64,000 bases of DNA from SAR324 cluster bacterium (GTDB lineage Bacteria; SAR324; XYD2-FULL-50-16; HCM1), in NCBI GenBank assembly GCA_002995645.1, contig PUHO01000012.1, positions 87,653 through 151,652 on the forward strand. Reading direction: 5' to 3'. Shown in pieces: positions 3,661-55,737 of the stretch (positions are counted from its first letter, which is position 1; the number at the start of each line of letters is the position of its first letter). The position numbers and the translations under genes are program-made. The notes beneath the pieces were generated by a model. That model searched no databases and had not been told where the DNA came from. It saw only the letters and a program-made list of their open reading frames with translations.

Positions 3661-3665
3661 TTATT

Positions 3666-3821: not shown

Positions 3822-3848
3822 TCGGAATTATATTTTACGGTCAACTTA

Positions 3849-5987: not shown

Positions 5988-6026
5988 AAGTCTATTTAAT
6001 CTAATTGCCAATTTACAAAGGAATAT

Positions 6027-6608
6027 ATGAGTCAAGATACAGATAAATTATTACCACATGAATACGACGGGATTCAAGAATATGACAACAAGCTTCCAAA
6101 ATGGTGGCTGTTATTATTTTATCTTACTATTGTTATAGCGATTGTTTACCTTGCTTATTTTGAAGTTTTGAAAGTAGGTTTAAACAGCCAAGAAGCTTAT
6201 AATGTAGAAATGAAGCAAGCACAAACGCAAATAGCAAAGTATAAAGACAGTAAACACGTAACGACGTTAGCCAGCAAAAGCGAGCAAACAGACGTGCCGG
6301 TAGATAAAGAAGCAGCAGCGGCAAGAGGGGCAAAAACATTTCACTCTAATTGTTTTACATGCCATGCGGCTGATGGCGGCGGCGGTATTGGTCCTAATTT
6401 AACAGACAAATATTGGATTCATGGTGACGGTTCGTTTACCGCTATTCGAGATATTGTAGTTAAAGGTGTCATTGAAAAAGGAATGCCGCCTAAAGGTGGA
6501 CTTTCTTTAAGTGAAGCACAAGTAGACGATCTTATATATTTTGTAAAATCACTACAAAACACAACGCCAAAACAGCCTAAAGCTGCAGAAGGCAATATAG
6601 TAGAATAA
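6027..6608 (+). CDS. ccoP: cbb3 oxidase subunit CcoP-like, monohaem (N-terminal CcoP domain, TM helix and one CxxCH)
   Basis: N-terminal signature DGIQEYDNKLPKWW and a TM helix. Single haem site CFTCHAADGGGGIGPNLTDKYW. Confidence 0.7.
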   Translation: MSQDTDKLLPHEYDGIQEYDNKLPKWWLLLFYLTIVIAIVYLAYFEVLKVGLNSQEAYNVEMKQAQTQIAKYKDSKHVTTLASKSEQTDVPVDKEAAAARGAKTFHSNCFTCHAADGGGGIGPNLTDKYWIHGDGSFTAIRDIVVKGVIEKGMPPKGGLSLSEAQVDDLIYFVKSLQNTTPKQPKAAEGNIVE

Positions 6609-6612
6609 CGCA

Positions 6613-6798
6613 ATGTATACAGAAATACTATCTTCTATTCATAACATTACTATATACCCGATGATAGGGATATTTATATTTTTTATATTTTTTATATTCG
6701 TTGTTATTTGGGCGTATTTTAATCTCAGTAAAGACGAGGCGCAAAGAATCGCCTTGGCAGTCTGTGAAGAGGAACAGGAAGGCAAACGAGACGTATAA
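6613..6798 (+). CDS. ccoQ: Small membrane subunit CcoQ-like (cbb3 subunit IV)
   Basis: 61 aa with a single TM helix beginning IYPMIGIFIFF and an acidic tail. The position and the IYP.I motif are typical of CcoQ/FixQ. Confidence 0.5.
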   Translation: MYTEILSSIHNITIYPMIGIFIFFIFFIFVVIWAYFNLSKDEAQRIALAVCEEEQEGKRDV

Positions 6799-6871
6799 AC
6801 GAATCTTTGTTTTACTAACTTAACTTATATTGATCAGTAACGTTCAATAAATTTCAATAAAAAGGAAGCAA

Positions 6872-7324
6872 ATGATAATACAATCTAATCAAAAAAAAGC
6901 AATCATGGTTGCTATCGTTGCTAGTGTATTTATACTAGCTTTTGCCAACATGGGGATAGCTAAATCTAAGTTGACAAAAGGGACGTCTAAATCGGTTCCT
7001 AGTAAGACCGTAGCGAAAGCAACGCCAAAGTCTATTGCTAACGGTAAAAAAGTATATGGTAAAATTTGTATGACTTGCCATGCCATTGACGGTGGTGGAA
7101 CTATTGGTCCTAATTTAACAGATAAATATTGGATTCATGGTAATGGAGATTTCAATTCTATTATGAACGTTATATTACACGGGGTCCCGGCTAAAGGCAT
7201 GCTTCCTAAAGGTGGCTTACCTTTGAAACAACAAGATATTGTTGACCTTACACACTACGTACAGTCTTTACAAGGAACAAAGCCGGCAAAACCTAAAGCC
7301 GCAGAAGGTAAATTAATTAAATAA
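6872..7324 (+). CDS. Monohaem c-type cytochrome, paralogous to the haem domain of CcoP
   Basis: Signal/TM N-terminus. CMTCHAIDGGGTIGPNLTDKYWIHGNGDF is almost the same block as in the 6027..6608 product. Confidence 0.7.
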   Translation: MIIQSNQKKAIMVAIVASVFILAFANMGIAKSKLTKGTSKSVPSKTVAKATPKSIANGKKVYGKICMTCHAIDGGGTIGPNLTDKYWIHGNGDFNSIMNVILHGVPAKGMLPKGGLPLKQQDIVDLTHYVQSLQGTKPAKPKAAEGKLIK

Positions 7325-38949: not shown

Positions 38950-39124
38950 AGGCTCCCGGTGTATTTGTAAAAAAATTATTAGTTAATATTAATTTGGCTT
39001 CTTTCTTGCTTAATCTTCTAGAATGCAAGGATGCATTAGTTTTTATTGAAGGATTAAAGTTTAATATAACAACTTATGAATAAGTTTAGTATAAGCTTAT
39101 TAACATTTGTTTATAAAGGTCAAC

Positions 39125-40093
39125 ATGAAAAAAACGATGATACATCCAATGAAAAACGTTATTTTATTTGGCGTTAGCTATGCTTTTTTACTTTCTACGG
39201 CGTCGGCGAATATTTTTGGCAGTAGTACGCCGGGAATATACAAACCGTCCGGAACGTATAACACAGAAGCGGCAACGTCACAAAAAGAGGAGCTTCCTAA
39301 TGATATGGCAACAACTGATAGCAGTGTTGTTGATCCTGTTGCTTCCCAATCAGACGATTGGCGTCCGGATTTAACGCCTCTTTTAACGCAAAACGATGCT
39401 ATGCCGATAGAAGAAACGCAAACGGCAAAAGAAGATATAGTTAAACCGGCGCAAACTAATGAAAATATAATTCCGGTTAGTGCAGAGATCCCAGCTGATA
39501 CAGTAGCGCCAATGCCGGTTTCTGCGTCGCGTATGGCAACAAAATTTGAAGGAATTGCTTCTTGGTATGGTCCGGGTTTTGACAATAGAAAAACGGCTAA
39601 CGGTGAAATATATAATCAAGACGCTATGACGGCAGCGCACAAAATATTTCCTATGAATACAATAGTGTCTGTTACGAATACGGAAAATAACAAAACGGTC
39701 AAACTTCGTATTAACGATAGAGGTCCTTATAAAAAAGGAAGGATTATTGACTTAAGCTATGCGGCGGCTAAAGAGCTTGGTTTTATTGATAAAGGCGTTG
39801 CGCACGTTGTTGTTAAAGTAATACAATTTCCTGATAGCTATTCTCATGCTGAAGGACTAGACGCCTATAAAAAGAAAGTTGTTCAAGTAGGGGTGCTACA
39901 AAATAGAGATAATGCGGAAAAGATTAAATCGCAAGCTATGGCTTTAACAGCGGAGAACTTTTATATTAGAGAAAAACAAAACTTGTTTTACGTTCAATCT
40001 AGTGCTTTTGCTACGACTGAAGATGCGTCGCAACTTAGTCAATCTTTAAGCGATCAAGGAATGAATAATATTGTTGTTAGCTATAAAAAATAA
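39125..40093 (+). CDS. rlpA: Septal ring lytic transglycosylase RlpA family protein with a C-terminal SPOR domain
   Basis: Signal peptide start at the internal Met (MKKTMIHPMKNVILFGVSYAFLLS). DPBB domain GIASWYGPGFDNRKTANGEIYN…LRINDRGPY. C-terminal SPOR-like ~80 aa. Confidence 0.8.
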   Translation: MKKTMIHPMKNVILFGVSYAFLLSTASANIFGSSTPGIYKPSGTYNTEAATSQKEELPNDMATTDSSVVDPVASQSDDWRPDLTPLLTQNDAMPIEETQTAKEDIVKPAQTNENIIPVSAEIPADTVAPMPVSASRMATKFEGIASWYGPGFDNRKTANGEIYNQDAMTAAHKIFPMNTIVSVTNTENNKTVKLRINDRGPYKKGRIIDLSYAAAKELGFIDKGVAHVVVKVIQFPDSYSHAEGLDAYKKKVVQVGVLQNRDNAEKIKSQAMALTAENFYIREKQNLFYVQSSAFATTEDASQLSQSLSDQGMNNIVVSYKK

Positions 40094-40183: not shown

Positions 40184-41011
40184 ATGAATAAACATAAAAC
40201 AAAGAAGATCGTTTTTTTGGCTGTTTGGATTATAGTATATTTTCTTATGATCTCACCTTTGTTTGCTATAGATCGCAATTTAAAGTTAGCACCTGTTACA
40301 AGTGAACCGCCGGAATCTTGGGTTGCGCCTATTGATTCGGGGAATCTTTGGCAATTAAGCCGTGTTGATATGATTCTGCGGAATAATCCAAAAGTTATTT
40401 CCGCTTTGTTTTATTCTTTAGTAACGATTAAAGGGAACGTTAAAAACGCAGTTAAAAAAATAGACAGTGAAATAATTAACTGTGATGCCAATCAAACGGA
40501 ACAACATTCTTGTTACCTTGATAGGCTGAAGCAAAAGAAAAGAAATCAAACGATTTCACACGTTTTTATATCGCCTTTACACGTTCTTTCTTTTTACCGT
40601 TTGTTTCATGTTAAAGGTATGGATATAGTACGCGTTAATTGGTCGTCTACGTATAATGAACCGGCTTATTGGAAAATAGACGATTTTTTTCATGATATGC
40701 AAATTCAAAAAGAAACGAAATATTATAAACTAAGAAAAAATATTCATTTAATCCAAATCGTCCCGGACTATACGCCTTACGTTTTTATTGCAATCCCGTC
40801 AAAAATGCGGATTAATTTGCAAAAAGTGTATAAAAAATTAAATTTTAATCCAGACGATCGTATATATCTTTCTATTGAACAGGCACGTAAAAAAAGAATA
40901 TCCGACGTGCTTGTTGTTAAGTTACGAATGCAAGCGAGAAAAGTTAAGATTAACAATATAGAAATGAACACACTCACAAGGGCGGAAGTAAACGCCTATA
41001 GCAAAATGTGA
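40184..41011 (+). CDS. Hypothetical secreted protein
   Basis: 275 aa with an N-terminal signal/TM segment (IVFLAVWIIVYFLMISPLFA). No recognisable domain. Confidence 0.35.
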   Translation: MNKHKTKKIVFLAVWIIVYFLMISPLFAIDRNLKLAPVTSEPPESWVAPIDSGNLWQLSRVDMILRNNPKVISALFYSLVTIKGNVKNAVKKIDSEIINCDANQTEQHSCYLDRLKQKKRNQTISHVFISPLHVLSFYRLFHVKGMDIVRVNWSSTYNEPAYWKIDDFFHDMQIQKETKYYKLRKNIHLIQIVPDYTPYVFIAIPSKMRINLQKVYKKLNFNPDDRIYLSIEQARKKRISDVLVVKLRMQARKVKINNIEMNTLTRAEVNAYSKM

Positions 41012-41151
41012 TAAAATGCTTTTATCCTTGTATTATCTCTTTTTAATTGGTTTAATACTTGCTTTTTTTATTAAATTTTATCATAATATATTCAGTTTGA
41101 TTGTAGGCATGCCTTACATCACATAATAATTTCTTTGTTACTGTTGGTACA

Positions 41152-43014
41152 ATGAGTAAAATAGTTTTAGTTTCAGATACAAATAACCTGATTTACGATT
41201 CCTTTAAAGAAGCGCTTGTTTCTTATATAGGTTCCCAAAATTTAATATATCTAAAAGATACAAGTATGCTTGTGCCAACTTTAAAAGAGGCGGCAGTTGA
41301 TATTGTATTTTTAGAATATACTGATTCGGTTAAAGAACTGATTTCTATTATTCGCGATGATGCGTTACTTTCTCATTTAATTATTATTTTAACCTATGGC
41401 GGAAGGAAGCAACTTTCACTTTCTGTTGCAAAAGACCTAGGGGCGGACGATATCCTTGAAAAACCGTTTGAAGTTATAGAAGTTAGGCAAAAAATAGATC
41501 TTTTTCATGCCAATACAACCTATTCGCAAGATCTTACGCATATTAATATTGTTGATCCCGTTATGGCAGAACTATTAGCTTCGGCAAGTAACGCGATACA
41601 ACAAACAAAGCAAAATCAAGAAGATAGTATTGAAGAAAGAGAACAACAATCGCCTATTCATATTAATAACCCTCTTGATACAGAACAAGACGACGATATA
41701 GCAAACGAGTTTAACCTATCTGATTTAGATGACGAAGAGAGCTCTATTACAGCAGCTAGCAGTATAAACAAAGAAGAACGTACTTTGCTTTTAGACGAGG
41801 AAGATAACGAAAAACTAACTTCGCCTATTAACATTCATGTACCTGATACGCAAGAATCAAATGACTTTCAAAATAAACCGGCAACACCGGATCAATACGG
41901 CATTTTAGCAATCCCTGTTGTTAGTGATACGCCGGATAGTAGCTTAAATCTATATGAAGAAGAGGATTCGCAAGATGATAGAGATTTATTTGCTGCTGAA
42001 GAAGAAGAAGCGGAAGCAGTTTCTCTTTTTGGAGAATATAATGATGACCTGCTACCATTAGAGTCGAACTTTATTTTTGAAGACGATACGAGCGAAGTTG
42101 AAACCGATTTTACTAGTGACAACGATACAAGCGAAGAAGAGCCCGGTTTTATCTTTGTAGAAGATGATAGCGAAGAAATAAAGTTAGATCCAGATTTTAC
42201 CTTTGAAGAAGATAGCGCAGAAATAGATCTAGATCCAGATTTTACCTTTGAAGAAAATACGAGCGAAGACGAATCAGACTTTTTATTTGAAGAAAATACG
42301 AGCGACAACGAAGAGGAATCGGACTTTTTATTTGAAGAAGTTACAAGCGAAGACGAAGACGAATCAGACTTTTTATTTGAAGAAGATACGAGCGAAAACG
42401 AAGAGGAATCAGACTTTTTGTTTCAAGACAGCAGTAATGAAGAACTAGTGCCAGAGCCTAACTTTACTATTGAAGAAGATAGCGAAGAACTACAATTAGA
42501 ACCTAATTTTATTGTTGAAGAAGACAGCAACGAAGAAATACAATTAGACCCGGATTTTTCCTTTGAAGAAGATACCACGGAAAGCGATATATTTGTAGAT
42601 TCAAACGAAGAAGAACTAGCGGCATTAGACAATATAAATACTTTGCAACAACCTTCTTTTATTGACACAGAAGACCAAGTTGAGCAAGAAGAAGATAATT
42701 TTATTTTTTCTTTAGAGAATTATAAAAGTAATGAAAGTGATACGTTTTCTCAAAAATTGAAAGAAGCCGGTTTGCATTTAGAAACAAAAAGACATACTGA
42801 TATGTCTAGTATTTCTATTCCTAGTGACGATATACACGCACACATAGCTAAAGACGTATTTGCGTTAAATGACCTTACAATGAGTGATATTATCCCAGAT
42901 GAAGACAAGGCAGACGCAAAAGAAAACAGGCAACCGTCTTTAGACAAACAAGCTTTAATTAAAGATATTCTTGAACGTGCAACAGAAGATATTACGAAAA
43001 TTATTCAAAAGTAA
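41152..43014 (+). CDS. Atypical (pseudo-)receiver domain protein with a long acidic repeat-rich tail
   Basis: The N-terminal ~115 aa have the CheY-like beta1-beta5 pattern (IVLVSDT…, VDIVFLEYTD, IIILTYGG, ILEKPF), with Glu where the phospho-acceptor Asp is expected and Ser-Asp for the acidic pair. Residues ~150-520 are D/E-rich with repeated DPDFTFEEDS / ESDFLFEENTS units, encoded by 60-66-bp DNA repeats around 42140-42440. Confidence 0.5.
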   Translation: MSKIVLVSDTNNLIYDSFKEALVSYIGSQNLIYLKDTSMLVPTLKEAAVDIVFLEYTDSVKELISIIRDDALLSHLIIILTYGGRKQLSLSVAKDLGADDILEKPFEVIEVRQKIDLFHANTTYSQDLTHINIVDPVMAELLASASNAIQQTKQNQEDSIEEREQQSPIHINNPLDTEQDDDIANEFNLSDLDDEESSITAASSINKEERTLLLDEEDNEKLTSPINIHVPDTQESNDFQNKPATPDQYGILAIPVVSDTPDSSLNLYEEEDSQDDRDLFAAEEEEAEAVSLFGEYNDDLLPLESNFIFEDDTSEVETDFTSDNDTSEEEPGFIFVEDDSEEIKLDPDFTFEEDSAEIDLDPDFTFEENTSEDESDFLFEENTSDNEEESDFLFEEVTSEDEDESDFLFEEDTSENEEESDFLFQDSSNEELVPEPNFTIEEDSEELQLEPNFIVEEDSNEEIQLDPDFSFEEDTTESDIFVDSNEEELAALDNINTLQQPSFIDTEDQVEQEEDNFIFSLENYKSNESDTFSQKLKEAGLHLETKRHTDMSSISIPSDDIHAHIAKDVFALNDLTMSDIIPDEDKADAKENRQPSLDKQALIKDILERATEDITKIIQK

Positions 43015-43027
43015 ATAATCGTTTTAT

Positions 43028-44137
43028 ATGACAGCCTATAAAAAAAAACCGACGCCGTATCTCCTCCTATTTTCCATTATTTGTTTACTTGGCATTGGTA
43101 TTTTAATGGTCTATTCTTCTAGTGCCATTTATGCTAATACCTATAATCGAAGTAATTTTTATTTCTTTAATAGACAACTTGGCTTTGTTGGGCTTGGTAT
43201 CCTTCTTTTTTTTGTCGTTATAAAATATCCCTATCAAAAATATAGATCTTGGATTCCTGTTTTACTAGGCATCTGTTTTGTTGCGCTTATTCTTGTTTTA
43301 ATTCCACGTATTGGACATGAAGTCGGGCATGCAAAACGTTGGTTTCGTATTGCTCATTTTAGTTTGCAACCTAGTGAACTGCTCAAAATTGCTATTTTAC
43401 TTTGGGGCGCTGATTTCTTAGATCGTAAACATGCTTATCTTGCCCAATTTTCACGTAGCTTGTTTCCGGCTTCTATTATCCTAGGTGTTTATTGCGTTCT
43501 TTTATTGGCGCAACCTGATTTTGGAACTGCCGTTTTGCTGGTTACTACGTTTATGATAATGTTCTTTGTTGCTGGCGGAAGAAAAACGCATATCTTTTTT
43601 AGTGGGCTTGTTATTAGTGCGATTGGCTCGGCGTTAGTGATTTTTAGCCCGTATCGTTTTCGTCGTATTGAATCGTTTTTAACCCCATGGAATGATCCAA
43701 CAGGAAGCGGTTATCAATTAATTCAATCGCTCATTGCCGTTGCAACCGGTGGTATTTTTGGAAAAAATTTAGGAAACTCAACGCAAAAACTATTTTTCTT
43801 GCCTGAAGCTCATACTGATTTTATTTTTGCTATTCTTGCAGAAGAGCTAGGCTTTATTGGTGTTTGTATTGTTGTTTTTCTTGTGTTGCTTTTTTTGCAA
43901 CAATCTTTAAAAATTGCTCGTCATTGTAAAGATAGATTTGGTAGAAACTTAGCTTGCGGTATTGCCGCGCTAGTCACTTTCCAAGCTATTATTAATATGA
44001 GCGTTGTTCTTGGTATTTTCCCAACAAAAGGGATCCCGTTTCCTTTTGTTAGTTACGGAGGGAGTTCTTTGATTACTATGATGATATTATCCGGCATATT
44101 ATTCAATATCGCTGTTAGCAATGAAACGCAAAAATAA
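43028..44137 (+). CDS. ftsW: Peptidoglycan glycosyltransferase, SEDS family (FtsW/RodA); FtsW by context
   Basis: 10-TM SEDS protein (…PEAHTDFIFAILAEELGFIG…). Immediately upstream of, and overlapping, murG. Confidence 0.8.
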   Translation: MTAYKKKPTPYLLLFSIICLLGIGILMVYSSSAIYANTYNRSNFYFFNRQLGFVGLGILLFFVVIKYPYQKYRSWIPVLLGICFVALILVLIPRIGHEVGHAKRWFRIAHFSLQPSELLKIAILLWGADFLDRKHAYLAQFSRSLFPASIILGVYCVLLLAQPDFGTAVLLVTTFMIMFFVAGGRKTHIFFSGLVISAIGSALVIFSPYRFRRIESFLTPWNDPTGSGYQLIQSLIAVATGGIFGKNLGNSTQKLFFLPEAHTDFIFAILAEELGFIGVCIVVFLVLLFLQQSLKIARHCKDRFGRNLACGIAALVTFQAIINMSVVLGIFPTKGIPFPFVSYGGSSLITMMILSGILFNIAVSNETQK

Positions 44138-45212
44138 ACCTACTAGCATTATAATTGCCGGCGGTGGTAGTGGCGGACATTTATTCCCGGGCATTGCTAT
44201 TGCGCAAGAACTGGAAGCCCAGTTGGATTCAAGTATAATCTATTTTATTGGCTCACGTTACGGCATTGAGTCGCGCGTTTTTCCTACTTTAAAATACCGC
44301 TGTTTCTTATTACCTATATCAGGATTATACAAAGTTGGTGCTATACGTAAGCTGCTTGGTTTACTGCGCTTTGCTTATTCTGTTGTATATACCTTTTTTT
44401 TGACGTTATATATACGCCCTCACGTCGTGATTGGCGTTGGCGGTTATGCGTCCGGTGCGGCTATGTTGTGCGGTTTATTACTACGTAGAAATTTAGTTAT
44501 TCAAGAACAAAACGCATCACCGGGCATGACAAATCGCTTTCTAGGTAAGTATGCCAAACTAGCTTTTGTGCCGTTTTCCGGTATGGAAAAGTTTTTTCCT
44601 AATCCTGTTGTTGTTGGCAATCCTATTCGTAAAGAAATATTGCAAGTTAAAGCATATACGCCACAAGACAAGGTCAATTTGTTGATTGTTGGCGGGAGTC
44701 AAGGTTGCCATGCTATTAACATGGCTTGCATAGAAGCCTTGCCTATTCTTGCCGATTTAGCTGATCAGATTCGTATTATACACCAAAGCGGCTACCGAGA
44801 TTATGAGATTTTGCAAGACGCTTATGCAAAATATCCAAAGCTAGAAGCGCAAGTTTTCCCTTTTGCTGAGAACATGGCAGAATTATATAGTCAAAGTCAT
44901 TTGCTATTGTGCCGTTCCGGTTCTATTATTCATGAAATTATTGTAGCCGGTAGGGGTATGTTGTTAGTGCCGTTTCCTAATGCGAGCGGGAATCATCAGT
45001 TGCGAAACGCTGAGTATATTGTAGAAAAGCAAGCAGGTATTTTGTTAGAACAAGACGAGCAATTAGGCGAAAAGCTGATACAAGTTTTACAGAGATTGTT
45101 GCAGAATACGAATGAAATAGAAGAGATGGCAAAGCAAGCGAAGAGCTTAGCAAAGACAGATGCGACAAAAGAAATCAGTGAAACAATTCTTTCTTTTTAT
45201 AAGCTGAAGTAA
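44121..45212 (+). CDS. murG: UDP-GlcNAc:undecaprenyl-PP-MurNAc-pentapeptide GlcNAc transferase
   Basis: N-terminal G-loop IIAGGGSGGHLFPGIAIAQEL. C-terminal GT28 domain. 17-nt overlap with ftsW. Confidence 0.85.
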   Translation: MKRKNKPTSIIIAGGGSGGHLFPGIAIAQELEAQLDSSIIYFIGSRYGIESRVFPTLKYRCFLLPISGLYKVGAIRKLLGLLRFAYSVVYTFFLTLYIRPHVVIGVGGYASGAAMLCGLLLRRNLVIQEQNASPGMTNRFLGKYAKLAFVPFSGMEKFFPNPVVVGNPIRKEILQVKAYTPQDKVNLLIVGGSQGCHAINMACIEALPILADLADQIRIIHQSGYRDYEILQDAYAKYPKLEAQVFPFAENMAELYSQSHLLLCRSGSIIHEIIVAGRGMLLVPFPNASGNHQLRNAEYIVEKQAGILLEQDEQLGEKLIQVLQRLLQNTNEIEEMAKQAKSLAKTDATKEISETILSFYKLK

Positions 45213-47560
45213 ACAATTTCATGCTATAAATATAACTTGTGTAGAAATGTTGTGAATTTTCGCCAGAGGTTGCCAATTTTTTCTAAGAACATAGCAGAGC
45301 TATATAGCCCCTGTGATATTGTTCTTATTCTACCTATTATTCATGAAATGCATGTAGCCAGTAATAGTATGTTATTATTGCCTTTTTCTTTCGCTAGTAA
45401 GAATCATTAATTACAGAATGTAGAAGAGATGGCAAAGCAAGCGAAGAGCTTAGCTATGTTTAAAAAATTTAACAACAACCGGCATGTTATGGTTCCGATT
45501 TTGTCATAGCCATCAAGGGTATATTGTTAGTATCGTTTCCTTGTGCTAGCAGATAGAAGAGATCCAAGCAAAGGCAGGTCGATAAAAGAAATTAGTGAAA
45601 CAATTATTTCTTTTTATAAGCTAAGGTAAACAAGTTCAAATTTAAAACTTTATGTGACGTACTCAAAGCTAGAAGCGTAAGTTTTTCTTGTTGTGGTTCC
45701 AGTTTTGTCATAGCCAGCAAGAGTATATCGTTAGTATTGTTTTCTTGTGCTAGCAGATAGAAGAGATCCAAGCAAAGGCAGGGCAAGAAACAATCCTTTC
45801 TTTTTATAAGCTGAAGTAAACAATTTCATGCTGTAAATATAACTTGTGTAGTAGTGTTGTGAAGTTTCGCTAAAGCTTGCCAAGTTTTCCCTAAAAACAT
45901 AGCAGAGCTATACAGCAAAGCCGTTTATTATGATATTGTTCTTATCCTGCCTATTCTCCATGAAATGCTTGTAATCGTTAAGATTATGTTATTGTTGCTT
46001 TTTTGTGCTAGTAAGAATCATTAATTACAGAATATAGAAGAGATGGCAAAGACAGGGCGACAAAAGAAATTAGTGAAACAATCCTTTCTTTTCATAAGTC
46101 TGCATACATAATTCAATTTAAAACTTTATGTGACGTACTCAAAGCTAGAAGCGTAAGTTTTTCTTGTTGTGGTTCCAGTTTTGTCATAGCCAGCAAGAGT
46201 ATATCGTTAGTATTGTTTCCTTGTGCTAGCAGATAGAAGAGATCCAAGCAAAGGCAGAGCAAGAAACAATCCTTTCTTTTTATAAGCTAAAGTAAACAAT
46301 TTCATGCTATAAATATAACTTGTGTAGAAATATTGCCAAGTTTTGCCAGAGATTGCCAATTCCCCCTAAAAACATAGCAGCGCTGTATAGCCCCGTTTGT
46401 TATGATGATGTTGTTCTTATCCTGCCTATTATTCATGAAATGTTTGTAGCCGGTAAGAGTATGTTGTTATTGCCTTTTTATTGTGCTAGTGAGAATCATT
46501 AATTACAGAATATAGAAGAGCTTAGCAAAGACAGGGCGACAAAAGAAATTAGTGAAACAATCCTTGCTTTTTATAAACTGAAGTAAATAATTTCATGCTG
46601 TAAATATAACTTGTGTAGTAGTGTTGTGAAGTTTCGCCAGAGGTTGCAATTTTTCCCAAGAACATAGCAGAACTATATAGCCCCTTTTGTTATGTTGTTA
46701 CTGCCGTCCAACCACCCCTTATCCGGCGCAGGATTAAAGCCACCTATGTTGTTACTGCCGTCCAGCCAGCCAGCCAACCAAGCAAAGACAGGGCGACAAA
46801 AGAAATTAGTGAAACAATCCTTTCTTTTTATAAGCTAAAGTAAACAATTTCATGCTATAAATATAACTTGTGTAGAAATATTGCCAAGTTTTGCCAGAGA
46901 TTGCCAATTCCCCCTAAAAACATAGCAGCGCTGTATAGCCCCGTTTGTTATGATGTTGTTGTTCTTATCCTGCCTATTATTCATGAAATGCTTGTAGCCG
47001 GTAATAGTATATTATTATTGCCTTTTTCTTGCACCAGTAAGAATCATTAATTACAGAATATAGAAGAGATGGCAAAGCAAGCGAAGAGCTTAGCCAAGAC
47101 AGATGCGACAAAAGAAATCAGTGAAACAATCCTTTCTTTTTATAAACTGAAGTAAATAATTTCATGCTGTAAATATAACTTGTGTAGAAATATTGCCAAG
47201 TTTCGCCAGAGGTTGCAAGTTTTCCCAAGAACATAACAGAGCTATATAGCCCCGTTTGTTATGATATTGTTCTTATCCTGCCTATTATTCATGAAATTAT
47301 TGTAGCCAGTAATAGTATATTATTATTGCCTTTTTGTGCTAGTAAGAATCATTAATTACAGAATATAGAAGGCAATCAAGCAAAGGCAGGGCAAGAAACA
47401 ATCCTTTCTTGTTATAAGTTGAAGTAGAGATTTCAATTTAAAACTTTATGTGGCGTACTCAAAGCTAAAAGCGTAAGTTTTTCTTGTTGTTCCAGATTTG
47501 TTATAGCCAGCAAGGTATATTGTTAGTATCGTTTTCTTGTAAAGGGAAATGCGATAAAAC
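45213..47560. pseudogene. About 2.3-kb array of decayed tandem copies of the murG 3' end (about 5-6 units, two alternating sub-unit types)
   Basis: Recognisable, repeated murG 3'-coding strings: …AGATGGCAAAGCAAGCGAAGAGCTTAGC…, …AAAGAAAT(C/T)AGTGAAACAAT.CTTTCTTTTTATAAGCTGAAGTAAACAATTTCATGCT…, …CAAAGCTAGAAGCG(C/T)AAGTTTT…. ORF-track fragments 45604..45786, 46320..46502 and 46868..47050 translate to MurG-like pieces (…LPIIHEMFVAGKSMLLLPF…). An odd GC-rich insert lies at ~46690-46790. Confidence 0.85.
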
Positions 47561-47585
47561 AGAGTGAAGAAATAAAGGGAAGCAA

Positions 47586-47624
47586 ATAAAAAACCTCTTT
47601 TACATAAGTGAAAGAGGTTTTTAA
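47586..47624. terminator. Bidirectional rho-independent terminator between the murG-fragment array and secG
   Basis: Perfect 10-bp stem AAACCTCTTT / AAAGAGGTTT with a 10-nt loop, flanked by an A-run on the left and a T-run on the right. Confidence 0.6.
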
Positions 47625-47643
47625 GTAGGTGGCTATTTTAGAA

Positions 47644-48081
47644 CTATTTCTTTTTAGGTTTTGTTTCTTTAGTAGCCTTAGCTTTTGTATCAACAGTAGC
47701 CGGTTTAGCTTTAGCTTTTGTGTCAACAGTAGCTGCTTTTGCTTTAGTAGCTTTAGCTTTTGTGTCGGTAGCTTTCGTAGCCGTATTTTTATCTTTTGTT
47801 GTCTCTACCGTTTTTACTTGTTTTTCTGAAACAGCATTAAGTACCGAATTATTAGCTTGTCTAGCTGTCATTACACTTAAGGTAATAGAAGTCAACATGA
47901 AAATAGTAGCAAGCCAAGTTGTTAATTTTGTTAAAAAGTTACCAACTGTTCTTGGGCTATTAGCTTGTCCGGCACTTCCAAAAGCTGCCCCAAGTTCGGC
48001 ACCGCGCCCCACTTGGCTTAAAACAATAAAAATAATAAGAATAGACACACTAAGGTGTAAGGTAAGTAAAAGACCGTTCAT
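47644..48081 (-). CDS. secG: Preprotein translocase subunit SecG with a K/A/T-rich C-terminal extension
   Basis: SecG core (LSQVGRGAELGAAFGSAGQANS…), then a ~45-aa tail TKATDTKAKATKAKAATVDTKAKAKPATVDTKAKATKETKPKKK encoded by a ~30-bp DNA tandem repeat. Confidence 0.75.
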   Translation of the reverse strand: MNGLLLTLHLSVSILIIFIVLSQVGRGAELGAAFGSAGQANSPRTVGNFLTKLTTWLATIFMLTSITLSVMTARQANNSVLNAVSEKQVKTVETTKDKNTATKATDTKAKATKAKAATVDTKAKAKPATVDTKAKATKETKPKKK

Positions 48082-48086
48082 AGGTT

Positions 48087-48851
48087 TTAAGATGGAAAAG
48101 CGTTACAAATAGTTAAAAATGATTCGGCAGATAAGCTAGCGCCGCCAACTAAGAAACCGTCAATATCCGGTTGTTTAGCTAAGCTTGCGACATTATCCGG
48201 TTTAGCACTACCGCCATATAAAATAGAAATAGTATTCGCTAATGTGGGAGATGATACTTCCGCAATCGTTTTACGAATGAAAGTATGCATTTCATTAGCT
48301 TGTTCGGCAGTTGCAACGTTTCCCGTTCCAATTGCCCAAATTGGTTCATAAGCAAGAACAATTTTAGATTGATGCGTTAAAGCCGCGTTCTGCCAGATAG
48401 ATTGCACTTGTGTTTTTACTTTTTCAAAGTGCAAATTATCTTTTCGTTCTTGGTCTGTTTCACCAATACAAATAATAGGTTGTATGTCTAGCCCAAGTAA
48501 AAGATTAGCTTTTTGAGAAACTAATTCATTACTTTCATTGTGGTATTCTCGTCTTTCAGAATGCCCAACAATAGTATAGCGACAACCTAAACTTTTTAAT
48601 AATTGAGGTGAAATTTCACCGGTATAAGCCCCGCTTATATGAGCAGAGCAATCTTGCGCACCTATAGAAATCGTTCCGCCACCTTGTAGGTAGTGCATAC
48701 AAGTTTCAATTAAAGGTGCTTGCGGCATAATCGCATATGAAATATTCAATTGCGGTTGCAAATTGGCTTGTAATGTATCAATTAAAGTTTCCGCTTCTAG
48801 CGGTAAAAGATTCATTTTCCAATTGCCGGCAATGATTTTTTTTCTGTTCAT
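48087..48851 (-). CDS. tpiA: Triosephosphate isomerase
   Basis: KIIAGNWKMN start. Catalytic region …IVGHSERR… and GGASL near the C-terminus. Confidence 0.9.
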   Translation of the reverse strand: MNRKKIIAGNWKMNLLPLEAETLIDTLQANLQPQLNISYAIMPQAPLIETCMHYLQGGGTISIGAQDCSAHISGAYTGEISPQLLKSLGCRYTIVGHSERREYHNESNELVSQKANLLLGLDIQPIICIGETDQERKDNLHFEKVKTQVQSIWQNAALTHQSKIVLAYEPIWAIGTGNVATAEQANEMHTFIRKTIAEVSSPTLANTISILYGGSAKPDNVASLAKQPDIDGFLVGGASLSAESFLTICNAFPS

Positions 48852-48852
48852 T

Positions 48853-50040
48853 TTATACCTCTGTCAAGGCTTCAATGCCCGGTAATTTATTACCTTGTAA
48901 TAATTCTAGAGAAGCACCGCCGCCAGTTGATATATGTGAAATTTTATCACCTAAACCGGCCTGGTTAATTGCATTCACTGAATCCCCGCCGCCAACTACT
49001 GTTTTTGCGTTGCTTTGAGCTAATGTTTCGCCAATGGAGAACGTACCTTTTTGAAAGTTACTCATTTCAAATACGCCCATAGGACCGTTCCAGAAAACAG
49101 TTTTAACATTTGCTAGCGCTTGTTGATATAAAGCAATAGTCTTAGGTCCAATATCCATGCCAAGCGAACCGTCCGGAATATCGCCTTCCACGATTTGTGT
49201 AGGAACGTCATTACTGAAACTAGTAGCAACCACATGATCTATTGGCAAATAGATTTTTTTATTTTGACTTTTTGCTTTAGCGAATAATTCTTCACATAAA
49301 TGTAAATTATCTGCGTCTAGAATAGAATTACCAATTTTATATCCTTGTACGTGTAGGAAAGAATAAGCCATGCCGCCGCCAATGAGTAAAGCGTTAGCAA
49401 CGTCTAGTAGTTTAGAAAGTAATTGAATTTTATCTTTTACTTTAGCACCGCCAACAATGGCAACAAAAGGAGGTTCCGGACTTGTTGCTAAAGGCAAGAG
49501 GTATTCTAGTTCTTTTTTCATTAAGAAACCGCAAGCTGATTTTGTGAAATAGTGCGTTACTCCTTCAGTAGAAGCGTGCGCTCTGTGTGCTGTTCCAAAA
49601 GCATCGTTCACATAGTAATCGGCTAAAGCTGCTAATTCTTTTGCAAATTGTTGTTCATTATCTGTTTCTTGCGGGTAAAACCGAACGTTTTCCATAAGAA
49701 TACAACCGCCGGGTTTTAAGTTGGCAATAGCTACTTCCGCAACAGAGCCAAGTAAAGTAGGAGAAAAAGAAACTTCTTGACCGAGTAATTCTTCTAATAC
49801 AGAAACAACCGGTTTTAATGAATATTTATCATTAGGTTGTCCTTTAGGTCGTCCAAAATGAGATAGTAAGATAACTTTAGCTTTTCTTTTTAGCAGATAC
49901 CGAATAGTTGGCAACGCTGCTTTTAATCGCGTAGTATCAGTAACTTGTTTTTGGTCATTAATAGGGACATTAAAATCAACACGAAGAAGTATTTTTTTGT
50001 TTTCTATGTCCGTTAATTGTTCAATTGTTAATTTGCTCAT
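48853..50040 (-). CDS. pgk: Phosphoglycerate kinase
   Basis: RVDFNVP near the N-terminus. GGGDS/GGGA hinge motifs. 395 aa. 1-nt gap to tpiA. Confidence 0.9.
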   Translation of the reverse strand: MSKLTIEQLTDIENKKILLRVDFNVPINDQKQVTDTTRLKAALPTIRYLLKRKAKVILLSHFGRPKGQPNDKYSLKPVVSVLEELLGQEVSFSPTLLGSVAEVAIANLKPGGCILMENVRFYPQETDNEQQFAKELAALADYYVNDAFGTAHRAHASTEGVTHYFTKSACGFLMKKELEYLLPLATSPEPPFVAIVGGAKVKDKIQLLSKLLDVANALLIGGGMAYSFLHVQGYKIGNSILDADNLHLCEELFAKAKSQNKKIYLPIDHVVATSFSNDVPTQIVEGDIPDGSLGMDIGPKTIALYQQALANVKTVFWNGPMGVFEMSNFQKGTFSIGETLAQSNAKTVVGGGDSVNAINQAGLGDKISHISTGGGASLELLQGNKLPGIEALTEV

Positions 50041-51376: not shown

Positions 51377-54253
51377 ATGTTTACATTTATAAATAGAAAT
51401 AAATTTTTTGTTCTATCCCTGTTTTTGGTGTTGGTTTCTTCCTGCGTATATGCACAAACAACAACGATAACGCCGGAAGAAAAGTTTATTAAAAAATATA
51501 ATAAATTTTATTGGCAACAAATATACTATGGCAAAATAGACGGATCTAAAAAGTTAATGTTTTCTCATTCTATGGCGTCTGCTAAGCTGTCGTTTGCCGA
51601 TTTGGACTCAGACGGTGATAAAGACGCTATAATGGGCTTTCGTAACGGAAGACTAGGCTACTGGGAAAACAAAGGAACAAACAAAGTCCCTAATTTTGAA
51701 TTAATAACCGATTCCTTTAAAGGCTATTTTTTTGAACGAGGGAAAGATAGTAAACAACGTAGGATTAAAAAAATTATTCAATTGCCGTTAAATGCCGTGC
51801 CTGCGTTTATGGATATAGACGGCGATCAAGATTTAGATTTGTTAGTTGGTAATCATGACGGTACTATATGGCTGTTTGAAAATAGAGGGAATAACTTAAT
51901 CCCTTTATATTATCTTGTTACTAAAAAGCTTATGGATATAGACGTAAAGCAAAATAGCGCGCCTATTGTGCGAGATATGGATATAGACGGCAAAGCGGAT
52001 TTAATTATAGGTGATGCAAAAGGGGAAATTTGGTTTTACAAAAATCAAGGGACTGTTGTTTTTCCAAGATTTGATCAAAAAACAAGAAAACTAGTCGGCG
52101 TTGTTCCGTTAAATACAAATGCAGTGCCGCAAGCTTTAGATTGGAATAAAGACGGTTTTGTTGATTTAATTGTAGGAACGCAAGATGGAACCTTAGTATA
52201 CTATGAAAATAAAGCGAATATAGACGAATTAGATTGGAAGACCCCGAAAGTGAATTTTAACTTTCTTGACGTTGGCGGGAATGCCGGTCCGGTTTTTAGT
52301 GATTTAGACGCAAGTAAAACGCCTGATTTAATTGTTACTAGTACGCAACCGATTGTGCAATACTATCAAATGCGACAAGATGAAAATGACACGATGTTTT
52401 GGAGTATTAGCGATAATTTCTTTTCTTATTACAAGTTAATCTTAAGAGGCAACAAAGCGATGCCCGCTTTTGGGGACGTTGACGGCGACGGCGATACAGA
52501 TGCCATTATTGGCGAAGAAGACGGCAATTTAAATTATTATATTAATAAAGCAAAAACAAAAGGCGAATTAAATTGGCACTTAGAAACGGAAAACTTGCTG
52601 AATATTAAACATTCTTATAATAGCGCCCCGGCGCTGGGCGATCTAGACGGTGACGGCGATCTTGATTTGCTTATTGGGCAAGCAGACGGATCTATTTATT
52701 ATGCAAAAAATATTGGCACGCCAAAAAAACCGCATTGGGAATTACAAGATACAACCTTTTTTCAAATTGACGTTGGGAATAATGCCGTGCCTCGTTTAGT
52801 TGATATAGACGGCGACGGCGATCTTGATTTGCTTGTTGGTTCTTTAATGGGTAGCGTTGTGTTATATGAAAACACAGGAAGCAAAACAAAACCTTTTTTT
52901 GTGTTAACTAACCCTAAGTTTGCTAAACTGACCGGCGTGTCTGATGTTGTTCCTTCGTTTTTTGATTGGAATAACGACGGAAAAAAAGATATGATCCTTG
53001 GTAATAGTAAAGGTAGTTTACAGATTTTATTCGGTGCGTCAAAGTATAACTCTATGTCTAATTGGGATCCTAATTCGTTTTTTACTATTTACCTTGATCC
53101 AGGCACGTATAGTGCGCCTTTGTTTTACGATCTAGATCAAGACGGCTTGCAAGATTTAATTATTGGTAACGGTGACGGCGATATTTTGTTTTTTAAAAAC
53201 CTAGGAACAACAAGCGCCGATCAAAATCGTTATTTAATTGATAACTCTATTGATGTGGAAGACGGGTCTTTAGTTGTATATCAAAAAGATCATATTTTAA
53301 AAATAAGTCGCCCAGTTGGGGATAAAGAAAAAAAAGTAATTAAAGGCAGCGAGGTCAGTCAAGTCAAACCGCATTACCACTTAGATTATACAGAAGAAAA
53401 GAAAGCCCCTGTGTATGAGAGTAAAGGTAAGCAATTAGTCTATAATAAAAATCTTTTGAATGCGGCGCCCACGCTTGCCGATATAGACGGTGATAAAGAT
53501 CTAGATATGCTTGTTGGCACAAGAGACGGCAAATTGTTTTTCTTTAGTAATGAAGGTGATGATAAAAACCCTAAGTTTCGCAGTTCTACTTTTATTAACA
53601 TAAAATTAAAAGATAAAGAAAACGTAACGCCTATTTTTGCCGATATAGACAAAGACGGCGATTATGATTTGATTTTAGGAAGTAAGCAAGGCGCGATTAC
53701 AGTGTATCGCAATGACGGCACAAGAGAAAAACCGTTGTTTGTGGAACAAAAAAAATGGACAAAAGATATTTGGTTATATAAAAATACGCACCCCGCTGTT
53801 TGGGATTTTAATAAAGACGGTTATCCCGATTTGCTTGTTGGTTCTGTTTGGGGAAGAATGTCTTTATTATTAAATAGAGTAAATCATTTTAAGTTAATAC
53901 AAAAAGATTTCCAAGCTATAGACGTAGGGCATAATGCTTCGCCTTTTATTGGGATACCTGATAATGGAGGTAAACCGTATTTACTTATTGGAACAGATAA
54001 AGGCAAAGTTTTATTTTATCAAAACACAGGGGAAGATTTGTTAAAAGGAAAATGGAAACTCTCTAGTTTAGGATCTAATATTCAATTACAAAAATCAGTT
54101 AAACCGGTGTTAGCGGATATTGATAAAGACGGCGATCAAGATTTGATTATAGGAACGGAAAGAGAAGGCGTTTTACTCTTTAAAAACCAAGCGCAAAAAC
54201 CTAAAACAGACAAAGAAATACAAGATTATATACAAAAAGAGGCGGTAGAATAA
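51377..54253 (+). CDS. Large secreted FG-GAP/VCBS repeat protein (beta-propeller repeats)
   Basis: Signal peptide. At least 12 repeats of the form D.D.DGD.DL..G…G…Y.N (e.g. DIDGDGDLDLLVGSLMGSVVLYEN). 958 aa. Confidence 0.7.
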   Translation: MFTFINRNKFFVLSLFLVLVSSCVYAQTTTITPEEKFIKKYNKFYWQQIYYGKIDGSKKLMFSHSMASAKLSFADLDSDGDKDAIMGFRNGRLGYWENKGTNKVPNFELITDSFKGYFFERGKDSKQRRIKKIIQLPLNAVPAFMDIDGDQDLDLLVGNHDGTIWLFENRGNNLIPLYYLVTKKLMDIDVKQNSAPIVRDMDIDGKADLIIGDAKGEIWFYKNQGTVVFPRFDQKTRKLVGVVPLNTNAVPQALDWNKDGFVDLIVGTQDGTLVYYENKANIDELDWKTPKVNFNFLDVGGNAGPVFSDLDASKTPDLIVTSTQPIVQYYQMRQDENDTMFWSISDNFFSYYKLILRGNKAMPAFGDVDGDGDTDAIIGEEDGNLNYYINKAKTKGELNWHLETENLLNIKHSYNSAPALGDLDGDGDLDLLIGQADGSIYYAKNIGTPKKPHWELQDTTFFQIDVGNNAVPRLVDIDGDGDLDLLVGSLMGSVVLYENTGSKTKPFFVLTNPKFAKLTGVSDVVPSFFDWNNDGKKDMILGNSKGSLQILFGASKYNSMSNWDPNSFFTIYLDPGTYSAPLFYDLDQDGLQDLIIGNGDGDILFFKNLGTTSADQNRYLIDNSIDVEDGSLVVYQKDHILKISRPVGDKEKKVIKGSEVSQVKPHYHLDYTEEKKAPVYESKGKQLVYNKNLLNAAPTLADIDGDKDLDMLVGTRDGKLFFFSNEGDDKNPKFRSSTFINIKLKDKENVTPIFADIDKDGDYDLILGSKQGAITVYRNDGTREKPLFVEQKKWTKDIWLYKNTHPAVWDFNKDGYPDLLVGSVWGRMSLLLNRVNHFKLIQKDFQAIDVGHNASPFIGIPDNGGKPYLLIGTDKGKVLFYQNTGEDLLKGKWKLSSLGSNIQLQKSVKPVLADIDKDGDQDLIIGTEREGVLLFKNQAQKPKTDKEIQDYIQKEAVE

Positions 54254-55737
54254 TGAATAAAAAAATAAGATTATTACTTGCTATTTTAGTATGTTTATAC
54301 ACGGGGATACAAGTTTGTAATGCCGAGCAACCGGTTGTTGTTTCTCAAATTATTGTTGGTTACGACGTGGTACGACGTGGGGAAACGCAATTAATTCAAG
54401 TTATGTTAAAAAACGTATCTAATTATTCTATTCCTGTGAACGTCCACATTATGGCAACCTTGCCTTCACGTAATATTGTCTTAGTCGCTAAAAAAAGAGC
54501 TCTTGCCGAAGATCGTAGTTTTACACGCGTATTGCTAGAGTATCCTTTGAAAGGCGTTTCTTTAGGACGCTACACGTTAAGAGTACGTGTGTTTGATGCA
54601 AAGAATAAGTTAATTGCAAAAACTTTAAACAGTCAGTTTGCTCAATTTTACGTATATAAAACAAAACCGCCTTTAAATTGGCTTAGGTATGCTAACGGTA
54701 AAAAAGATAGTGACACAAATAGTAAAGGATCGATCGGAGGTTCTTCGCAGTGGCAAGGCAAAGCAAGCGGGCTTGTTTCGCCGTCTGTGTTATTTCCTGA
54801 AGAAGGAAACGGCAAAGGTAAGAAAGGAGCGACTAATAACGGTAAAAAGCAAAGTTCTTTGTTAAAAGGCACTGCTTTTGGAGATAATAAAAAACCGACT
54901 ACCATAGACGGGAATCAAGACAAGAAAGCCAGTTTAGATCTAGGGTTTAAGAAAGCGGACGTTTTTTGGTATCGTTTATCTGTTCGTGATGCGTCTGTTT
55001 TACGTGGAGAAATAGCGTACATTAATGTTTGGATACAAAATAAAGGCGGCGATAACGCGCAAAAAATAGATTATACTTTGTATTGGTATTTCTCAAAATA
55101 TCCAAGTCGTAAGATTAAGTTTTATAGTGCTACTATTCCCATTCTAGCGCCGGGCGAGGTGAAACGGACTATTATTCCCGTGTTGATTCCTAAAACGGAA
55201 ATAGTGGGGCAATATAAAATATACGGCGTGTTAGATCCGGAAAATAAAATAAAAGAAATAGATAAAGATAATAATAGAGCGGATTCGACTGATTCTTTTA
55301 TTTTTGACGATATATCTCTTGTGACGCCCGAACCGGACGAAGAAGGGCGAATTACGTTAGCTGATATTGGGCAAACTAAGTTTGCTTGGCGGAGTAATAA
55401 ATTTAATCAATTTAAATTACAGATTTCACCGACTATAACATTTGCTGATACTAAGTTAATATTAAACATTCCAAAAGGGGATCGTTGGACTTCACTTAAA
55501 GAGGTGCATCCGTTTTCCGGTGAGTTGTTGCGGCTGGCTAAGACATTAATGGAAACGCAGAAAGTTGACTTTTTATATTGGCGAGTTATGGGGAGGACAG
55601 TCGTAGGAAACGTTTTTTATTCTCAAGTATATCATTTGTATTTTTCTAAAACAAAAACGCCGGAAAATGAAAAAGCGACAGACAAGAAAGACAAAACAGG
55701 TACAGAAGAGCTAGCGATTCCTATGGAAGCAGAATAA
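54253..55737 (+). CDS. Secreted protein with CARDB-like domains, translationally coupled (TAATG) to the FG-GAP gene
   Basis: Signal peptide. Two segments fit the CARDB pattern (…V.N.G…yt.Y.y…iplL.PGE…DP.N.I.E.d..NN), e.g. INVWIQNKGGDNAQKIDYTLYWYF…ILAPGEVKRT…DPENKIKEIDKDNN. Confidence 0.45.
   Translation: MNKKIRLLLAILVCLYTGIQVCNAEQPVVVSQIIVGYDVVRRGETQLIQVMLKNVSNYSIPVNVHIMATLPSRNIVLVAKKRALAEDRSFTRVLLEYPLKGVSLGRYTLRVRVFDAKNKLIAKTLNSQFAQFYVYKTKPPLNWLRYANGKKDSDTNSKGSIGGSSQWQGKASGLVSPSVLFPEEGNGKGKKGATNNGKKQSSLLKGTAFGDNKKPTTIDGNQDKKASLDLGFKKADVFWYRLSVRDASVLRGEIAYINVWIQNKGGDNAQKIDYTLYWYFSKYPSRKIKFYSATIPILAPGEVKRTIIPVLIPKTEIVGQYKIYGVLDPENKIKEIDKDNNRADSTDSFIFDDISLVTPEPDEEGRITLADIGQTKFAWRSNKFNQFKLQISPTITFADTKLILNIPKGDRWTSLKEVHPFSGELLRLAKTLMETQKVDFLYWRVMGRTVVGNVFYSQVYHLYFSKTKTPENEKATDKKDKTGTEELAIPMEAE

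Follow-up and report, generated by a model that had tools for sequence, protein, structure and literature searches.

The gene at positions 41152..43014 of the stretch analysed here, 64,000 nucleotides of a SAR324 cluster bacterium (NCBI GenBank assembly GCA_002995645.1, contig PUHO01000012.1, positions 87,653 to 151,652 of the forward strand; hereafter the window), stands directly upstream of ftsW and encodes a cytoplasmic protein of 620 aa, in which a receiver (REC) domain devoid of the phospho-acceptor Asp is followed by a long acidic tail, predicted to be disordered and bearing a fast-evolving repeat array. From gene order and architecture we infer a function linked to FtsW: with a probability of roughly 0.5, the product works in the cytoplasm, independently of phosphorylation, as a scaffold or regulator tied to FtsW, and is an ortholog of a family of giant proteins encoded at the same place in the nearest FtsW relatives. 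The gene and its parts are:

41152..43014, plus strand: pseudo-receiver and acidic-tail gene, intact open reading frame (ORF) of 620 aa with an ATG start, from the ORF listing
41152..41526, plus strand: REC domain without phospho-acceptor Asp (aa 1-125)
41314..41316, plus strand: codon of Glu55, at the phospho-acceptor position (CheY Asp57 column)
41527..41583, plus strand: post-REC motif 'SQDLTHINIVDPVMAELLA' (aa 126-144), the one block specific to the family that can be detected in the window protein
41584..42051, plus strand: non-repetitive acidic low-complexity region (aa 145-300)
42052..42582, plus strand: array of 11 fifteen-residue repeats (aa 301-477)
42583..43011, plus strand: C-terminal region of lower charge, delimited by composition (aa 478-620)

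The aspartate-less receiver domain

A reading of this DNA made from the letters alone (the sequence-only reading) had described the N-terminus as CheY-like, and had suggested a search with receiver models and a structure prediction as checks. Pfam Response_reg (PF00072) scored the 620-aa protein at 13.8 bits, under its gathering cutoff of 30.2, and matches to the NCBIfam response-regulator models fell far below their cutoffs and were limited to the REC part. Because of the sub-threshold Pfam score, the assignment needed further tests, and these back the receiver fold. A phmmer search with aa 1-140 against 1.84 billion representative proteins returned nine non-self matches at E <= 0.001 (4e-7 to 1e-3), all nine being strong, Pfam-confirmed REC proteins, mostly with tandem REC domains. 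The AlphaFold2 (AF2) model of the domain, with a predicted local distance difference test score (pLDDT) of 87, displays the (beta-alpha)5 order of elements, strand and helix alternating five times, and superimposes on CheY with a template modelling (TM) score of 0.72-0.80 (Foldseek TMq against CheY and other RECs, 0.65-0.76). Searched with Foldseek against the PDB, it retrieved CheY, MicA, DivK and other receivers (TM 0.65-0.85, E ~1e-6). The N-terminal profile of the relatives described below likewise matched solved REC domains in the PDB, at up to 4e-16.

Residues were mapped with HMMER and MAFFT, CheY and nine real REC domains serving as references. As had been read from the letters, Glu occupies the phospho-acceptor position (Glu55, within 'VDIVFLEYTD') and the acidic pair is Ser-Asp (Ser8-Asp9, within 'IVLVSDTNN', in the columns of CheY Asp12-Asp13). 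Thr81 falls in the Thr87 column and Lys104-Pro105 in those of Lys109-Pro110, and the beta3-alpha3 loop is 2-3 residues shorter. An aspartate-less receiver (ALR) is defined as a recognisable receiver without the phospho-acceptor Asp, and a pseudo-receiver as one in which at least one of the DD, D, T and K residues is lacking; among ALR replacements Glu (26%) ranks first in frequency and Ser (15%) third (PMC12632262, PMC4395418). With Glu55 at the D position and Ser8 at the first D of the pair, and with Asp9, Thr81 and Lys104 kept, aa 1-125 are an aspartate-less pseudo-receiver in the sense of both papers. Since the phospho-acceptor Asp is missing, the domain is unable to take part in His-Asp phosphotransfer. 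Neither Pfam nor NCBIfam places an output domain in the 620-aa protein, which does not qualify as a canonical response regulator.

The acidic tail and its repeats

Among the 44 window ORFs, the median content of Asp plus Glu (D+E) is 9%; this protein, at 28% over its full length, exceeds the runner-up (17%) by a wide margin, and its net charge is about -141. The 495-aa tail as a whole contains 32% D+E, 4% Lys and Arg (K+R) and 3.7% Pro; aa 126-290 hold 27% D+E and 4% K+R, and residues 291-500 reach 40% and 0.5%, respectively. Tandem Repeats Finder (TRF) reported 45-bp (15-aa) in-frame tandem repeats at 42160-42548 with 77-93% matches. TRF and a unit table together define the array of 11 units, and a twelfth, degenerate unit is found at aa 511-525. 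In the consensus, xxx[ED][SP][DN]F[ILT]FEED[TS]SE, Phe is invariant and the aromatic-acidic core is conserved. Acidity and repeats are thus as extreme as the sequence-only reading had it; its figure of ~370 aa for the repeat tail is not, the repeats occupying ~177 of the 495 aa.

A single-sequence AF2 run gave no secondary structure for aa 165-514, array included (pLDDT ~30-38), and a low-confidence helix at aa 136-164, with otherwise no confident structure in the aa 145-300 region. On this model the tail is predicted to be disordered. An amphipathic helix at the very end (aa 599-619, nt 42946-43008; hydrophobic moment 1.5) is also a low-confidence AF2 prediction. In neither Pfam nor NCBIfam does any family match the tail, so that the earlier statement that the whole protein belongs to no characterised family holds for these two collections. 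The 620-aa protein has no signal peptide and no transmembrane segment was inferred, the only 19-residue stretch at about the usual hydropathy cutoff sitting within the REC fold; the protein should therefore be cytoplasmic.

A giant gene precedes ftsW in the relatives

The 620-aa product is a singleton in a collection of 15 billion proteins. Sequence searches with it (full length; aa 1-140 word-indexed; aa 1-140 with phmmer) having given no protein of the same architecture, relatives were reached through the neighbouring FtsW. The full-length search recovered the query alone, probably as a result of the acidic tail overwhelming its word filter, and the word-indexed search recovered nothing. In the window, the genes that serve for this comparison are:

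43028..44137, plus strand: ftsW, SEDS peptidoglycan polymerase (TIGR02614, 410.7 bits, above cutoff; PF01098; score with the RodA model below the RodA cutoff)
44121..45212, plus strand: murG (TIGR01133, 259.2 bits, above cutoff)
47644..50040, minus strand: synteny markers secG (47644-48081), tpiA (48087-48851) and pgk (48853-50040), from Pfam SecG, TIM and PGK

The 620-aa gene is separated from ftsW by 13 nt, one fewer than previously stated, and murG overlaps ftsW by 17 nt, in agreement with the tight packing of the three genes described before.

The nearest tier of FtsW comprises ~25 relatives with 48-55% identity, those with names being called 'SAR324 cluster bacterium', 'Deltaproteobacteria bacterium' or 'bacterium' (metagenome-assembled genomes). 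Upstream DNA could be read for 12 of them (loci L081, L084-L088, L090, L093 and L097-L100), and at all 12 a very large gene lies directly upstream of ftsW on the same strand, with a spacer of 1-52 nt; the spacer measures 4-8 nt at the majority of loci, 13 nt at both L098 and L099, and reaches 37-52 nt at L087, L090 and L097. The link to ftsW, for which the sequence-only reading had advised looking in close relatives, was present wherever it could be read. Neither of the two outcomes that this reading had named as refuting it, failure to predict a receiver fold and absence or unlinking of the gene in close relatives, was thus observed. Lengths of the upstream gene product are:

L081, 1380 aa; L084, 1249 aa; L085, 1361 aa; L086, 1705 aa
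L087, 1096 aa; L088, partial; L090, partial; L093, 1491 aa
L097, 1124 aa; L098, 1307 aa; L099, 1249 aa; L100, 1193 aa

These giant proteins are built alike, from an Asp-less REC, a very large acidic region with repeats and a conserved C-terminal helix, and contain 32-39% D+E and 2-5% K+R. Pfam annotation, as precomputed, mostly gives them a 'weak' Response_reg or nothing. In L082, from the same population as L081, the giant gene is broken up.

The order ftsW(-murG)-secG-tpiA-pgk follows the giant gene in L087, L088, L090 and L097-L100, and the window shares the extended order gene-ftsW-murG-secG-tpiA-pgk. In L100 (7001-8602), ftsW is followed by secG on the opposite strand and murG is missing, hence must lie elsewhere in that genome; the giant gene still abuts ftsW. 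The genes upstream of the giant gene vary between sub-clades, and the RlpA/SPOR neighbourhood of the window is not conserved in the relatives. Together, the absence of murG from L100 and the varying upstream genes indicate that the conserved unit is the giant gene-ftsW pair.

Outside this clade, the gene was found at none of 81 loci (L001-L080 and L089). The outgroup L089, whose FtsW is 47% identical, has a classical dcw cluster with murD-ftsW. Across L001-L080, the relatives' N-terminal profile matched one ORF only, a generic REC of L009 that lies on the opposite strand; their C-terminal profile matched nothing. A scan of genome contigs for FtsW yielded, among the matches listed, identities of at most 44%, and these were used solely as an outgroup set. 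A metagenome scan with the family C-terminal motif recovered only six loci, drawn without exception from these few lineages. The giant-gene family is rare and confined to the clade that holds the nearest FtsW relatives of the window.

FtsW of this clade (P0002, P0013-P0036) differs from P0038-P0061 by an N-terminal cytoplasmic tail with ~7 additional residues and a basic character (net +2 to +5; '...R(P/S)(T/S)PYLLL'), and carries four fixed substitutions, W126, F257, S320 and I336 (window numbering). As the mark of a partner-binding site, these differences are too weak to use.

Anatomy and evolution of the family

Nine full-length relatives define the family features. In their REC domain the acidic pair reads Glu/Asp followed by Asn/Glu, all nine have Ser at the phospho-site ('LLSN'), and 'LLLT(S/F)A' and 'RKPF' are retained. 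The loss of Asp is thus conserved, and the Glu of the window protein, which the sequence-only reading took for phosphomimetic, is not: with Ser in the relatives, the conserved principle is not phosphomimicry by Glu. After the domain comes a motif, L..(L/I)xV(V/I)DDEL(I/L/M)xLL, then an 'EELDPT' block and the internal islands 'EIEFE' and 'IQEMIxFRQVMKAKY' (also given as IQEMIxFRQVxKAKY), and finally a strongly conserved C-terminal helix, 'LSxMIExVxxETxxxxLxxxLPxMxxKxxxEE', for which a PDB search disclosed no solved relative. The terminal helix predicted in the window protein gave no match to the profile of this helix, and its equation with it is not supported.

The ratio of non-synonymous to synonymous substitution rates (dN/dS) in the relatives' REC is 0.12-0.38, which places the gene under purifying selection. 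The domain diverges 2-3 times faster than FtsW, with 58-71% identity where FtsW has 78-88%. In the tail, composition is conserved (26-41% D+E and 1-8% K+R in the relatives) and repeat periods differ, at 15, 18, 20, 21, 28 and 47 aa with the window included. The arrays lie toward the C-terminus in most relatives, and TRF reported none in L087. Periods and copy numbers are:

L093: 18 aa, 12.6 copies
L084: 21 aa
L081: 47 aa, 6.6 copies
L086: 20 aa and ~30-105 aa

The contigs L084 and L085, of near-identical strains, encode identical FtsW (P0018), and their giant genes (3243-6992 and 2907-6992) encode 1249 and 1361 aa, respectively. The surplus of 112 aa corresponds to four times a 28-aa unit, 'STDPFDVLSAQAAADDEVEEPVLEDAPV', and is either a copy-number polymorphism between strains or an assembly collapse. 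One short motif common to the repeats of all members ([DE]-P-x-hydrophobic-x-x-E-[DE]-[DE], resembling the FtsZ C-terminal peptide) was tried and rejected. The specific repeat sequence is lineage-specific and no trait of the family; what the tail retains is its composition.

The window gene as a probable member of the family

Like the relatives' genes, the window gene occupies the slot directly upstream of ftsW in the same orientation, and its product combines an Asp-less REC with a long acidic tail that bears tandem repeats. Taking D+E above 25% and K+R below ~8% as the mark of such a tail, the window protein stands at 32% and 4%. Its REC block scores 25.5 bits against the family, a value that none of 2000 decoys reaches. 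The profile of the nine members aligns through 'LTHINIVDPVMAELL', giving the window protein 35.8 bits and decoys in which this stretch was shuffled 30.8±1.65; the post-REC motif thus adds ~5 bits, and 23 of 2000 decoys reach the window score (p≈0.01), a weak but positive signal. The identity of the window REC to the family is 23%, within the ~20-30% predicted from the faster clock of the family at 50-55% FtsW identity. Mainly from position and architecture, we infer that the window gene is a shortened and strongly diverged ortholog of the giant gene, a relationship that is likely rather than proven.

Proposed function

We propose that the product is made together with FtsW, and that it would act on, or beside, the polymerase from the cytoplasmic side. 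The pseudo-receiver and the post-REC motif may form a constitutive protein-docking module, for which the C-terminal helix of the relatives would provide a second site. Between them, the polyanionic tail would present sparse aromatic and hydrophobic 'stickers' within acidic 'spacers' and confer a bulk property instead of a specific sequence, through which it may associate with itself or condense, attract basic partners electrostatically, or keep out nucleoid and ribosomes. Such a role would account for a tail that preserves its composition and length, with repeats free to change in sequence, period and copy number. The failure of a shared repeat motif moves the weight from a multivalent array serving one conserved partner to a sticker-and-spacer polyanion of this kind.

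A bolder form of this proposal, which we consider unlikely, makes the family an essential, lineage-specific cytoplasmic component of a SAR324-type divisome, which would assume the recruiting or activating role that falls to proteins of the FtsA/FtsN type in model bacteria. The pseudo-receiver, or the C-terminal helix of the relatives, would then bind FtsW or its activators, and the polyanionic tail would form a condensate or brush organising lipid II supply (MurG) and polymerisation (FtsW).

Several observations weigh against the proposal of an FtsW-tied ortholog. Some concern descent: generic RECs outscore the window protein on the family N-terminal profile (~60 vs 27.6 bits), the relatives' proteins are not among the best phmmer matches of its REC, and five or six family blocks (EELDPT, the internal islands, the C-terminal helix) score no higher in it than in composition-matched shuffles. 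At 620 aa, it is about half as long as the shortest relative (1096-1705 aa), and it has Glu where they have Ser. The AGFDPxLM motif is limited to L081, L084/L085 and L093, and its profile matches the window repeats (DPDFTFEED) no better than shuffles. Others concern the models, that of the REC having been built from an alignment of REC domains, hence not independent of the homology claim, and that of tail disorder resting on a single sequence. Finally, gene adjacency may stem from shared expression timing and not from physical partnership.

Alternative explanations

This last point leads to the alternative that stands up best, although we regard it as rather unlikely: the protein would be a general cell-pole or polarity hub in the manner of RomR, HubP/FimV or PopZ, without a direct role in peptidoglycan synthesis, its slot before ftsW merely securing expression matched to the cell cycle. 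The succession of REC, long disordered region and C-terminal helix is the plan of RomR, acidic and rapidly varying repeats are a hallmark of HubP, and the tail sequence is not conserved across the family. Nevertheless, adjacency at 12 of 12 loci, down to ~50% FtsW identity and with spacers of 1-52 nt, is stronger than co-timing usually gives, and the pair outlasts both the loss of murG in L100 and the change of upstream neighbours. Moreover, no mglA, romX, flagellar or pilus genes are found near the 620-aa gene, and the LysM, transmembrane and FimV domains are absent.

It is also improbable, to a somewhat greater degree, that the window gene is no ortholog at all, being either an independent Asp-less receiver that came to lie upstream of ftsW or a gene in decay within a genome that is low in GC (35%) and possibly reduced. 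The REC nearer to generic RECs than to the family, the absence of blocks B3-B7, the length and the Glu already mentioned speak in its favour, as does the degenerate murG 3' array just downstream, a sign that the locus has been unstable. These are countered by the same strand and slot, the extended synteny through ftsW-murG-secG-tpiA-pgk, the common architecture and Asp loss, the post-REC motif at the same offset (p ~0.01), and a REC identity such as the faster clock predicts; in addition, the ORF is intact, every repeat keeps the reading frame and the core is conserved, and the REC models confidently.

Still less probable is a role for bulk charge alone, in which the polyanion would buffer or store Mg2+, polyamines or basic proteins, or act as a DNA-mimicking decoy that holds off the nucleoid or nucleoid-binding proteins, with the REC as an anchor or remnant. 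The net charge and a tail that conserves only composition fit such a role, which leaves unexplained the fixed slot before ftsW and the purifying selection on the REC, post-REC motif, internal islands and C-terminal helix of the relatives; the invariant Phe and the conserved aromatic and hydrophobic residues of the repeats further suggest contacts and not charge alone.

That the protein is an ordinary response regulator, which a histidine kinase would phosphorylate and which would switch the activity or expression of ftsW-murG, is very improbable despite the retention of Thr81, Lys104 and one Asp (Asp9) of the metal-binding pair: without a phospho-acceptor Asp (Glu in the window, Ser in nine of nine relatives) this reading is refuted for His-Asp phosphotransfer. 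Moreover, the domain has a shortened beta3-alpha3 loop, the protein contains neither a DNA-binding nor an enzymatic output domain, and no histidine kinase gene adjoins the 620-aa gene.

Comparison with known systems

The preferred reading, an FtsW-tied scaffold or regulator, draws on a domain class that is well represented elsewhere. ChxR (Glu), FrzS (Ala) and the plant pseudo-response regulators (Glu) share with the window protein and its relatives a receiver fold in which the Asp is replaced, and retention of the Thr and Lys, as in the window protein, is common among ALRs (PMC4395418, PMC12632262). Known bacterial ALRs mostly have DNA-binding, coiled-coil or enzymatic outputs, and none has been described with a polyanionic repeat tail of 500-1600 aa or a fixed slot before ftsW.

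RomR of Myxococcus xanthus uses its N-terminal receiver as a docking module, followed by a disordered middle and a C-terminal helical region that binds partners (PMC12719032), and thereby offers a precedent for a two-ended adaptor made of a REC, a long disordered region and a C-terminal helix. It differs by its Pro-rich linker, Glu-rich end and length (420 aa) and by its partners MglA, MglB, MglC and RomX in motility polarity, and it has not been reported beside ftsW. The family tail is acidic with 3-7% Pro; the comparison with RomR was made from its description and from PDB matches, and among the PDB matches no relation to RomR or to any solved protein was seen beyond generic REC.

HubP/FimV proteins possess a large, unstructured, acidic cytoplasmic region whose imperfect repeats vary in sequence, length and number between close species (PMC12918733). 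This variability resembles that between L084 and L085 and across the family. HubP/FimV have their own periplasmic LysM domain, transmembrane segment and C-terminal FimV/TPR domain; the window protein has none of these according to Pfam and hydropathy, its folded domain being a receiver. PopZ of Caulobacter is a small (~180 aa), acidic and mostly disordered cytoplasmic hub with terminal helices for binding and self-assembly, and has no receiver domain, no tandem repeats and no linkage to ftsW. No similarity to PopZ was found for the window protein (Pfam; no match outside the REC).

With the modulators of FtsW or FtsWI (the FtsA-FtsN pathway, FtsQLB, SidA/DidA, YneA), the likeness lies in the proposed role, namely the non-enzymatic control or organisation of FtsW. 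Homology and common architecture are lacking, and the likeness of role is drawn from gene order only.

Other features of the neighbourhood

Upstream of the 620-aa gene, the window contains:

39107..40093: rlpA with a SPOR domain
40184..41011, plus strand: 275-aa ORF with a hydrophobic N-terminal segment, between rlpA and the 620-aa gene
41012..41151, plus strand: AT-rich intergenic region of 140 nt, delimited by gap sizes

The gene does follow an RlpA/SPOR gene, as the sequence-only reading had it, although not immediately, since the 275-aa ORF intervenes, and this neighbourhood, as noted above, is not kept in the relatives. The 275-aa ORF has no match in Pfam or NCBIfam, is a singleton in the protein collection and has no counterpart at the same position in the relatives' loci. 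The intergenic region is a possible promoter region for a unit made of the 620-aa gene, ftsW and murG; promoter and terminator scans for the limits of an operon gave match counts no higher than in shuffled sequence. Two antisense ORFs rich in Ser and Leu, 41892-42308 (minus strand, 138 aa) and 42423-42668 (minus strand, 81 aa), were rejected as genes: they arise in the repeat region because GAA/GAT-rich sense codons are read backwards, and are not to be annotated.

Between murG and secG, a gene-poor stretch of 2.4 kb (45213-47640) is a tandem array of ~5-6 degenerate copies of the murG 3' end, with 60-96% identity and a spacing of ~257-617 nt. The copies include the segment coding 'IIHEIIVAGRGMLLVPFPNASGNHQ', each followed by a stop, and ORFs 46320-46502 and 46868-47050 are translated pieces of the array, which is absent from the relatives' loci. 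SecG (47644-48081, minus strand) matches its Pfam model over residues 4-71 and continues in a C-terminal extension of ~70 aa, in which Lys, Ala and Thr abound and repeats of the type 'ATVDTKAKAK' occur; the extension is strongly basic and is encoded a few kb from the strongly acidic 620-aa protein. SecG of the relatives measures 101-163 aa. Further downstream (51377-55737, plus strand), a 958-aa protein with FG-GAP repeats is followed by a 494-aa protein with a CARDB domain, probably as a cell-surface pair. The eukaryotic BBS2/BBS7 beta-propeller models give the former whole-protein scores above cutoff, with no single stretch significant by itself.

Significance

The recruitment and activation of SEDS polymerases such as FtsW constitute a central open question of cell division, and have been worked out in few model organisms. 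A gene that stands beside ftsW throughout an abundant uncultured lineage is a concrete candidate for a lineage-specific FtsW partner. The domain class, that of ALRs and pseudo-receivers, is known; what is new is an acidic hub anchored by a pseudo-receiver and linked in a conserved manner to a SEDS polymerase. This architecture is not listed among the characterised pseudo-receivers of PMC12632262 and PMC4395418, the former of which, a 2025 review, calls the mechanisms of pseudo-receivers largely a mystery. Full-text literature searches returned nothing relevant on pseudo-receivers tied to FtsW or to SAR324 division. No Pfam or NCBIfam model covers the family, which escapes standard annotation because its Pfam score is sub-threshold.

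The family joins two recurring themes, dead receivers as docking modules and giant acidic disordered hubs. Should its members prove to be divisome components, they would represent a kind of SEDS regulator not known before, with a dead two-component module as its basis. Were the protein only a co-expressed hub, it would still offer a clean example of selection for composition, and not for sequence, in a bacterial disordered protein.

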